Assembly: GCA_944390275.1 (NCBI GenBank)
Contig: CALXPL010000004.1
Coordinates: 29,139-93,138 of the forward strand
Direction of reading: 5' to 3'
DNA from: an uncultured Alphaproteobacteria bacterium
GTDB taxonomy: Bacteria; Pseudomonadota; Alphaproteobacteria; RF32; CAG-239
Length of the DNA stretch: 64,000 nt
Of this stretch, positions 62,504 to 64,000 are shown in pieces. Made by a program: the position numbers and the translations under genes. The notes beneath the pieces are model-generated. The model saw only the letters and a list, made by a program, of their open reading frames with translations, did not search any database and was not told the DNA's origin. The stretch's first letter is position 1, and the number at the start of each line of letters is the position of its first letter.

Positions 62504-63487
62504 ATGAGTGTGTATGCATGGCGTAAGCCCGTGCTGACGCTTTCTTTATTGATAGGAACGTCGGCGAGCTGTTGGGGGTATGAACAACAGCCTTTAAAAA
62601 ACAATATAAATTTAACCGAAGCAAAACAATCATTAAAAACAGAAATATTTTTTAAAACTTTGAACACGAAAGGAATCAAAGTCGCATCGGTGTGTTTTAT
62701 AACCGATGCCGGAAATTGCTCGGGAGATAAATTCGGTAATCTCGAAAGTCCTAACGGTGGAGGTGGAGGAAACCCCGATGACCACGGAACACCGCAAGAG
62801 TTGTGTCAAGATGCCGGATTTACAAACACACCCTGTCCGACAGGAAGTACAATAGATAGTTATTGTCCTTATGACAGTTCTTATCATACCTGTAAATGTC
62901 TTCCCGAATATAACAAATTTTGTAATGGAGCCGATGAACAAGGTTCCGGAGTTGCTTGCGACGGAAAATACAAAGAATGTTGTAATTTATGTTCGGCATA
63001 TAAATATACCTCTATTCCATCGGGATATGTGAGCAACGGCGAATGTCAATCGTGTAGTGGCAAGAAATACAAAATAAAATGCGACCCACAAAAATATGTT
63101 TCCGCCTCATCTTGTGGAACACAAGGCGGAAGCGGAAGTACCTGTTCCGATGATAGCGGAACTTATTATCAAAAATGCAACTGCCCCAATAATTACGAAT
63201 GGAGTGATACCCAAAAGAAATGTGTTTGTTCGACTTCTTTCAAATATTCATGTACAGGCACGGGATATGCCGGAGGAGATGGAAATTCTTGTGATAACAA
63301 ATATTCAAAATGTAAATGTGCGAGCGGTTATGTTTGGAATGCCTCACAAGGAGCTTGTGTTTGCAACGGATTAGACTGGTGTTCTCTTAATCAGGATTGT
63401 ACCTCTCTAGGCTATGCCAAACAAAGCTGTTCAGGACAAATTTTAAGATGTCCGTTTGATACAAGTTATGTGTATTGCTTAAATTAA
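62504..63487 (+). CDS. Cysteine-rich secreted protein, long form. Family member 3a
   Basis: Start taken at MSVYAWRKPVLTLSLLIGTSASCWG (gaggtg RBS). An alternative ATG at 62486 lies inside a (TG)5 tract. Near-identical to 34795-35823 over the central ~135 aa, including identical DNA inferred from shared alternate-frame peptides. Confidence 0.6.
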   Translation: MSVYAWRKPVLTLSLLIGTSASCWGYEQQPLKNNINLTEAKQSLKTEIFFKTLNTKGIKVASVCFITDAGNCSGDKFGNLESPNGGGGGNPDDHGTPQELCQDAGFTNTPCPTGSTIDSYCPYDSSYHTCKCLPEYNKFCNGADEQGSGVACDGKYKECCNLCSAYKYTSIPSGYVSNGECQSCSGKKYKIKCDPQKYVSASSCGTQGGSGSTCSDDSGTYYQKCNCPNNYEWSDTQKKCVCSTSFKYSCTGTGYAGGDGNSCDNKYSKCKCASGYVWNASQGACVCNGLDWCSLNQDCTSLGYAKQSCSGQILRCPFDTSYVYCLN

Positions 63488-63501
63488 GAAGGAGACGGGA
63501 C

Positions 63502-64000
63502 ATGAGAAAATTAACTTTATTAACTTCGGTTTTATTAGCGTCTTCTTTTCAGACGGTCAATGTATCGGCACAATGTATGAATACCATAAATTGTCAAGCA
63601 TTAGGTTACACCAAAACTTCATGTACAAAAGGCGGTGTAAAATGCCCGACAGGAAATTATTGGTATTGCCCGAAAGACACAACAACACCGCAATGCAGCA
63701 GTTCTTATAAATATACCTGCACGGGAGCTTATCAAAGTCCATCGGGAACAGCGTGTAACGGTAAATATCAAAAATGTAATTGTTCAAACAACTATGTTTG
63801 GAATTCTACACAAGGACGATGTCTTGCAGGTTCTGGCAGTGGTTCCGGTAGCGGCTCAGGTAGTGATTCCGGATCGGGAAATACTTGTCAAAATACAGTT
63901 GAATATAAAGTCAATTATACAACGAGTTGCTTTTGTGATACTGTAGGGGGGCAATATAGTTTAATTCAAATGATACATTATGTTTGTGAACAAGGAATTT
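63502..64000 (+). CDS. Cysteine-rich secreted protein, short form type B with Gly/Ser linker (3' end beyond the window). Family member 3b
   Basis: Signal peptide MRKLTLLTSVLLASSFQTVNVSA|QC, the module INCQALGYTKTSCTKGGVKCPTGNYWYCP, then YKYTCTGA...GKYQKCNC and a GSGSGSGSGSGSDSGSG linker. 14 nt after the upstream gene. No stop before position 64000. Confidence 0.55.
   Translation, partial: MRKLTLLTSVLLASSFQTVNVSAQCMNTINCQALGYTKTSCTKGGVKCPTGNYWYCPKDTTTPQCSSSYKYTCTGAYQSPSGTACNGKYQKCNCSNNYVWNSTQGRCLAGSGSGSGSGSGSDSGSGNTCQNTVEYKVNYTTSCFCDTVGGQYSLIQMIHYVCEQGI

Follow-up and report, generated by a model that had tools for sequence, protein, structure and literature searches.

At the end of a 64,000-nt stretch of DNA from an uncultured alphaproteobacterium (contig CALXPL010000004.1, positions 29,139-93,138; the window, whose numbering is used throughout) we identified a three-gene operon encoding cysteine-rich proteins, here termed cassette 3. 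Together with cassettes 1 and 2 of the same window it belongs to a protein family that, as judged from its sequences, is undescribed so far, Sec-exported, disulfide-rich and carried by a few uncultured gut Alphaproteobacteria. By its predicted signals and reading frames the operon is made up of a promoter, one long gene, two short genes and a terminator, with the window ending inside the second gene. Our preferred interpretation, offered tentatively and at somewhat less than an even chance, is that cassette 3 encodes a split binding system in which a stalk and exchangeable heads are made as separate proteins, and that such cassettes would supply the cell with a changeable set of surface binding proteins. 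Coordinates are collected in Table 1; L and P numbers denote the metagenome contigs and proteins used for comparison.

The full operon can be read on contig L085 (ENA ERZ24773247, 119,751 bp), which was retrieved as a contig encoding an identical HflX protein and is identical to the window at every base from 54000 to 64000. On this contig short gene 1 is intact (221 amino acids, window-equivalent 63502-64167, no frameshift) and is followed after 28 nt by a third family gene (short 2; 188 amino acids, window-equivalent 64196-64762), then by a GC-rich hairpin, a T-run behind it and, in convergent orientation, a glycosyltransferase gene. The original prediction, made from the window, had described a long and short pair 14 nt apart downstream of hflX, the short protein being extended by a (GS)n linker and further Cys-rich sequence. 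The genes, the 14-nt gap and the linker-extended form were all borne out, the 221-amino acid protein having no early stop beyond position 64000 and being no fragment, while the pair became a long, short, short triplet, a layout common to cassette 3, cassette 2, L002 and L004. Pfam domains likewise place hflX immediately upstream of cassette 3, preceded by hfq, trkA and dusB. Gaps of 14 nt recur in cassettes 1 and 2; this spacing was found only in the species of cassette 3 and in L005, gaps elsewhere ranging from -17 to 376 nt, and it reflects recent common ancestry rather than a rule. The Cys content is 8.6-10.1 % versus 0.7-1.8 % in the neighbouring housekeeping proteins, and in the cassette 3 proteins the counts are even when Cys that lie in the signal peptide or close it are disregarded. 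With 135 homologues of the long and 45 of the short protein, all from metagenomes or metagenome-assembled genomes (MAGs) and all named 'hypothetical', and with Cys at ~9-10 % against ~1 % in the neighbours, the Cys-rich proteins are not a product of chance.

A profile search (HMMER) of 1.84 billion representatives returned 896 family members at E ≤ 1e-3. Using the motif A[SN]VCFITD[AT] on one genome per species (GTDB), we found 91 relatives in only ~8 MAG species, at 6-20 copies per species and often at contig ends; record titles mark these MAGs as uncultured gut Alphaproteobacteria. Neither Pfam nor NCBIfam matched the seven family proteins of the window save for low-complexity matches to the linker (Serglycin, FEA1). 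PHROGs and PADLOC scans of these proteins and of ten proteins with alternative C-terminal domains (CTDs) were empty, the other exception across the family-library scans of both sets being a weak match to Lcl_C. Sequence searches of the PDB with profiles and single sequences gave nothing significant, IMG/VR viral contigs contained no family member, and the phage tail-fibre, receptor-binding and defence families of PHROG and PADLOC were unmatched.

The long protein consists, in order, of a signal peptide, a variable leader, the motif ASVCFITDAGNC, a Gly run, a series of Cys-rich modules and a terminal LGY knot (C-x5-C-x2-LGY-x5-C-x6-CP-x7-C; last 33 residues, 63380-63478). An AlphaFold model built from 85 sequences has a predicted local distance difference test score (pLDDT) >90 over nearly all of residues 91-327, every element of which is a beta-hairpin, and <50 over residues 1-90. 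Within this low-confidence region the motif positions V63-D68 and C72 do not vary among 44 sequences and reach at least 90 % conservation in 85, so that the ASVCFITD motif, conserved despite its pLDDT below 50, behaves as a linear motif and not as part of a fold. The protein has 33 Cys, one more than the long protein of cassette 1 with its 32; the additional one is C23, a possible lipobox Cys: both TSAS/C23 and SSAG/C of P0023 (slashes mark the end of the signal peptide) fit a PROSITE-style lipobox pattern and are followed by polar sequence when read by eye. Matches to the pattern elsewhere in the family fall inside hydrophobic cores. The rod found no significant counterpart in the PDB with Foldseek (E ≥ 0.02, TM ≤ 0.33), the best of the weak matches being TNFR1, DcR3 and the EGF repeats of LRP2. 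Like the rods of TNFR cysteine-rich domains, EGF-like and furin-like repeats and coats of the Giardia variant-specific surface protein (VSP) type, it would be an elongated stack of small disulfide-held beta-hairpin modules, and one family relative has a sub-threshold match to RANK_CRD_2. Unlike the TNFR, EGF and furin repeats, the family is bacterial, its Cys spacing differs and there is no significant match in sequence or fold; the likeness of the modelled rod would be one of construction principle only. The published 'CysRRep' repeat (bioRxiv 10.64898/2026.06.07.730663) also differs in Cys spacing and is not the same module.

Short proteins carry a signal peptide, an LGY knot, one rod module (pattern …YKYTCTG…ACNGKYxKCNC…W…C), usually a linker, and a CTD; some have an extra 43-amino acid module, and the (G/S/D) linker is 7-22 residues long. 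In short 1 the Sec-type signal peptide ends …NVSA/QC and the linker is G110-G126 (GSGSGSGSGSGSDSGSG), followed by more Cys-rich sequence; no tandem DNA repeat encoding the (GS)n linker was detected by TRF. The structure of the short protein was modelled on P0122, a relative sharing the same CTD, and not on the 221-amino acid protein itself; the N-module reaches pLDDT 74-89 in this model. The known carriers of the CTD of short 1 (CTD3, TCQNTVEYKVNYTTSC…) are limited to L085, P0122, P0158 and P0104, a 463-amino acid 'long' protein that has it at its C-terminus, and a profile search for further relatives recovered P0158 only. The presence of CTD3 on both short and long proteins indicates that CTDs move between scaffolds. 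A match of CTD3 to complement factor B (E 0.64) was at the level of chance.

The single recurrent known domain of the family is Lcl_C (PF07603). Found in large members, it comes after the rod and usually sits at the C-terminal end; in several relatives its score exceeds the Pfam cutoff. The type A CTD of the original prediction (cassette 1 short; cassette 2 long and short 1) is present, although it is better described as a divergent Lcl_C/DUF1566 domain (hhalign against Lcl_C-positive CTDs, probability 90.6 %, E 1.3e-6). Because the orphan CTDs stand in the position that Lcl_C holds in relatives, we infer that they are alternative binding heads. The linkage of long and short genes was compared across complete long genes for which 900 nt or more of the sequence downstream was available. 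Where the long gene stops at the LGY knot ('headless'), a gene for a short protein with signal peptide and LGY knot lies just downstream in 11 of 12 cases by regular expression, and in the twelfth (L007) such a gene was found by eye 300 nt downstream, giving 12/12. Of the 54 long genes whose coding sequence extends beyond the knot, many of them already equipped with a head, 6 are followed by such a short gene (Fisher p = 1.2e-7). This coupling supports a functional split into stalk and head.

On our preferred reading the long protein would be a cell-attached stalk, anchored by way of its lipobox or the ASVCFITD motif and made up of the possible lipobox Cys, a disordered tether with the invariant ASVCFITD, the Gly run and a rod of ~235 amino acids of beta-hairpin modules, whose 32 Cys could form up to 16 disulfides and which ends in the LGY knot. 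Each short protein, with its own signal peptide, LGY knot and single rod module, would carry its variable CTD on a flexible hinge, (GS)n in short 1. The small Cys-rich CTDs would act as exchangeable ligand-binding heads displayed with or beside the stalk, the job that Lcl_C would do in fused relatives, where it directly follows the LGY knot. Recombination among paralogous cassettes, with crossovers in the conserved N-module or linker and in the conserved 3′ end or intergenic region, would diversify the repertoire.

Such a layout is reminiscent of Lcl of Legionella, a surface adhesin described as a 'lollipop' of anchor, stalk and DUF1566/Lcl_C head, the last being the C-type-lectin-like part by which Lcl binds host glycosaminoglycans (PMC11162425). 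Both are exported and share an N-terminal attachment region (a putative one here), an elongated stalk and a C-terminal head, which in many family members including those of cassettes 1 and 2 is Lcl_C-like. As to the type II secretion and the N-terminal surface retention of Lcl-type adhesins, what can be read in the family is a Sec signal peptide, the possible lipobox and the conserved disordered motif, with no N-terminal amphipathic helix predicted in the long protein. The stalk of Lcl is however a collagen triple helix, whereas that of the family is a disulfide-stapled beta-hairpin rod lacking GXY repeats; the long and short proteins of cassette 3 lack Lcl_C at E up to 1; and the family splits stalk and head into separate genes and swaps at least 20 sequence types of head. 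What appears to be new is the combination of an Lcl-type layout of anchor, stalk and head with CTD swapping in the manner of polymorphic toxins, on a new disulfide-rich scaffold and split across genes.

Clustering of the last 75 residues of 52 short proteins gave 20 CTD types. The N-type of the window ('MRKLTLL') occurs with seven of them and 'MRRIILL' with six, three CTD types being found with both. A physical trace of exchange is preserved in L002, which comes from the same sample at the same coverage and on these grounds is probably a fourth cassette of the same genome. L002 and cassette 3 share 95.3 % DNA identity between the ASVCFITD codons (62678) and the point where the linker begins (63848), while outside this interval the promoter, leader and CTD are unrelated, so that the homology breakpoint falls exactly at the GS linker. 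Homology returns over the final ~70 nt that encode CTD3: past the stop of its CTD2-type gene, L002 retains at 10752-10820 an orphan copy of the last ~20 codons of CTD3, reading SGTIYPSTIGQARCHTKCND and a stop. The breakpoint at the linker and this remnant are the footprint of a CTD replacement with crossovers in the linker and at the 3′ end. The cross-tabulated N- and CTD-types show free re-assortment, and the combinatorial modularity proposed originally is strongly supported by this table, the breakpoint, the displaced remnant and a gene-conversion tract between strains (below).

The same footprint is what would be expected of polymorphic toxins. Recombination at rhs and cdi loci exchanges the CTD and leaves a remnant of the displaced one as an orphan downstream (PMC3150448, PMC4436062), and the family resembles Rhs and CdiA-CT in its conserved N-terminal region with unrelated alternative CTDs and in the orphan fragment of L002. 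We therefore considered, as an unlikely alternative, that the cassettes encode toxins or bacteriocins without immunity proteins, the N-module serving in delivery or receptor binding and the Cys-rich CTDs being toxic to competitors or eukaryotic cells that carry a receptor absent from the producer, which would make an immunity gene unnecessary. A conserved N-terminus, a linker and a hypervariable CTD, together with the strain-level variability and assembly breaks at these loci, fit such a role. However, no CTD of types 1, 2 or 3 matches a toxin family or solved structure in Pfam, NCBIfam or the PDB, one of the alternative CTDs found in this position, Lcl_C, is lectin-like and no toxin fold, and CTD3 is paired with differing neighbour CTDs rather than in a fixed combination. 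Candidate immunity ORFs are lacking at all five cassettes (1, 2, 3, L002, L004), the genes downstream being instead family paralogues, pheT, proS, pyrG or a glycosyltransferase. Unlike known polymorphic toxins, cassette 3 has neither a recognised toxin domain nor a downstream immunity gene, and the family proteins are small (190-330 amino acids), Cys-rich and Sec-exported, with no domain of a dedicated secretion system. Only Sec signal peptides and no marker of type V, VI or VII secretion were seen, in scans that were not aimed at secretion systems. CTD3 could still have a novel toxin fold.

Signs of gene conversion are present as well. Strain L084 differs from the window at 12 positions, all within 62840-62956, and is otherwise identical; the first seven of the changes equal the L002 paralogue, and their clustering and agreement with L002 identify a gene-conversion tract. 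Over 975 nt the DNA of cassettes 1 and 3 agrees at 79.7 % identity, with a nearly identical block at 63073-63222. Such mosaic conversion between paralogues, with 6-20 of them per genome in gut MAGs, would also suit a variable protective or antigenic coat, in which protease-resistant, disulfide-rich surface proteins of a multigene family would vary mainly to escape immunoglobulin A, phage or proteases, as the Giardia VSPs do, and would have no specific ligand, and the near-identical promoter, leader and signal-peptide DNA of ~14 paralogues in other MAGs and a frameshifted allele (P0004) in another sample point the same way. We regard a coat as improbable, as each cassette has its own promoter with no single expression site or silent donor array seen, there is no invertible element or long slippage tract (TRF found none, and only a (TG)5 run is present), and the occurrence in many members of Lcl_C, a bona fide binding fold, speaks for recognition of a ligand. 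DUF1566 is listed in passages of two studies (PMC4159848, PMC5758913) among the domains of target proteins of diversity-generating retroelements, in which, as proposed here, a C-terminal ligand-binding part is diversified. The diversity of the present family arises instead from whole-domain swapping between cassettes, and no reverse transcriptase or template repeat was noticed in the scanned ORFs or in cassette-to-cassette BLAST, neither of which was a systematic search for them.

Several observations count against the split stalk and head system that we prefer. In the family-library scans neither the long protein nor short 1 of cassette 3 carries Lcl_C or a known binding domain, CTD3 has just ~four known relatives, and in the P0122 model its pLDDT is <50, the linker likewise having no confident model. 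The lipobox was recognised by eye and is confined to one group of close relatives, and passage across the outer membrane would have to be assumed. The displacement of CTDs with orphan remnants is a hallmark of polymorphic toxins and not of adhesins. Docking of the long and short proteins via their LGY knots is pure conjecture on our part, and the two knots of the cassette 3 operon are only ~40 % alike. A more specific, and in our view unlikely, version holds that this is a two-part 'plug-and-display' surface system in which the disulfide rod, anchored by a lipid or by the motif, captures separately secreted heads through matching LGY knots. If so, one stalk could present alternative heads of the same operon, recombination at the GS hinge could pass heads from cassette to cassette and from strain to strain, and the whole would be a bacterial analogue of a modular receptor repertoire for gut colonisation.

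The promoter predicted for cassette 3 is credible since the blocks ATTGA…TTAAC…ATG.CATAAT…TGTGTG…GAGGTGTA..ATG are conserved before related long genes of other MAG species (L007, L016, L023). The leader has a weak hairpin at 62468-62481 (ATACC-GTAA-GGTAT; z -1.46, not significant), and Rfam found no family in it; in L007 the same place is taken by a different hairpin (CTGCC-GCAT-GGCAG; z -0.29, also not significant). Cassettes 2 and 3 had been predicted to share a promoter arrangement, AAATTAACC followed after N9 by CATAAW, suggestive of co-regulation through an operator-like site. The 9-mer does lie upstream of both long genes (62427-62435 and 41042), the gapped pattern has no further occurrence in the window (0 expected, for a pattern defined after the sites had been seen), and the promoter spacers of related genes in L007, L016 and L023 have TTAAC(C)AAT as a conserved element. 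In cassette 2, however, CATAAA follows after N11 rather than N9, and AAATTAACC by itself is at chance frequency in the window (3 found vs 2.0 expected) and absent from cassettes 1 and 4 (L002). It sits between -35 and -10 in cassette 3, whereas the best promoter of cassette 2 by eye (TTGTAC-N17-TAAAGT) lies downstream of it. The leader of cassette 2 aligns with the type common to cassette 1, L002 and L005 through GTGATGATAAG, which precedes the ribosome-binding site (RBS). By comparison of the sequences there are two leader types, and cassettes 2 and 3 differ in type; the shared 9-mer stands, and shared control, although possible, is not favoured and seems rather improbable. The cassette 1/L002 type is related to a block, TTTACA-N17-TATAAT-AGTCGTAGGAAAGAAG…, common to the ~14 paralogues in other MAGs.

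Table 1 Features of cassette 3 and of the paralogous cassettes in the window (slashes mark the ends of signal peptides)
Feature	Position	Strand	Details
Promoter, sigma-70-like (predicted)	62422..62450	+	TTGAAA-N17-CATAAT with TG-extended -10; 10/12 matches
RBS	62494..62497	+	GAGG, 6 nt before ATG, from sequence; preceded by (TG)5 run 62485-62494
Long gene	62504..63487	+	ATG 62504, stop 63485-63487; 327 amino acids, 33 Cys (10.1 %); signal peptide, tether, invariant motif, Gly run, disulfide-rich rod, terminal LGY knot
Long, signal peptide	62504..62572	+	Ends LIGTSAS/C (C23), possible lipobox; P0023 (closest protein, other species) LMASSAG/C
Long, family-defining motif	62684..62719	+	A-S-V-C-F-I-T-D-A-G-N-C, residues 61-72; then Gly run NGGGGGN, ~62765-62785
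Long, rod of beta-hairpin Cys-rich modules	62774..63484	+	Residues 91-327; AlphaFold
Intergenic spacer	63488..63501	+	Exactly 14 nt, AGGAG at 63490-63494; same spacer in L002, L004, L085
Short gene 1	63502..64000	+	ATG 63502, open at and truncated by window end; complete protein 221 amino acids, ending at window-equivalent 64167
Short 1, signal peptide	63502..63570	+	VSA/QC; from sequence
Short 1, LGY knot	63574..63669	+	From sequence
Short 1, rod module	63694..63822	+	
Short 1, (GS)n linker	63829..63879	+	
Short 1, CTD type 3	from 63880	+	
Cassette 1	33965..35826	-	Long 35826-34795; short 34780-33965 with divergent Lcl_C head
Cassette 2	41113..44246	+	Long fused to divergent Lcl_C head 41113-42717; shorts 42732-43484 and 43497-44246

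The ~14 paralogues with this block (L011, L028, L055, L060, L066, L072, L075, L080 and others) are near-identical in promoter, 5′ leader and signal-peptide DNA; their shared block, TTTACA-N17-TATAAT-AGTCGTAGGAAAGAAGTTTGCAAGGAGATATTATGATGAAAATACG, resembles a common expression cassette. A 269-amino acid ORF (35954-36763, + strand) that is divergent from cassette 1 and has no Pfam match overlaps the far-upstream part of the cassette 1 leader ORF.

To our knowledge the gut Alphaproteobacteria of this clade are uncultured, and we know of nothing reported on their interactions with host or neighbours. The present family, with its 896 representative clusters all hypothetical, is the clade's most expanded and most variable set of exported proteins. 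Should the heads bind host or microbial ligands, the system would account for differences in niche between strains, and it would provide at least 20 new binding or toxin folds that are small and rich in disulfides. The loci also break metagenome assemblies, so that cassettes are systematically lost from MAGs and under-represented in surveys. Most assemblies of the hflX locus (L001, L086-L093) stop either ~71 codons inside the long gene or immediately behind it, as is expected where multi-copy sequence begins. The position next to hflX is kept among strains only, the related cassette of L007 lying elsewhere, while the position of a lexA-adjacent cassette is conserved in L053. In P0004, from another sample, the cassette 3 long gene is frameshifted after KKCVCS (window ~63230-63374, in the frame of ORF 63096-63374) and continues for 288 amino acids in the alternative frame, which could represent a pseudogene allele, a phase variant or an assembly error.

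Elsewhere in the window, a giant ORF of 2879 amino acids (16559-25198, - strand) has no Pfam domain except a sub-threshold ankyrin-repeat match at residues 50-89, and differs from the adjacent genes in a slightly higher GC content and a reversed GC skew. A second large ORF (54016-58029, + strand; 1337 amino acids) has no recognisable domain, with a weak DUF948 match only, and is replaced in other strains by a 1325-amino acid version. The sole RNA gene that Rfam and ARAGORN found in the 64 kb is a tRNA-Pro(GGG) at 5780-5856 (- strand).

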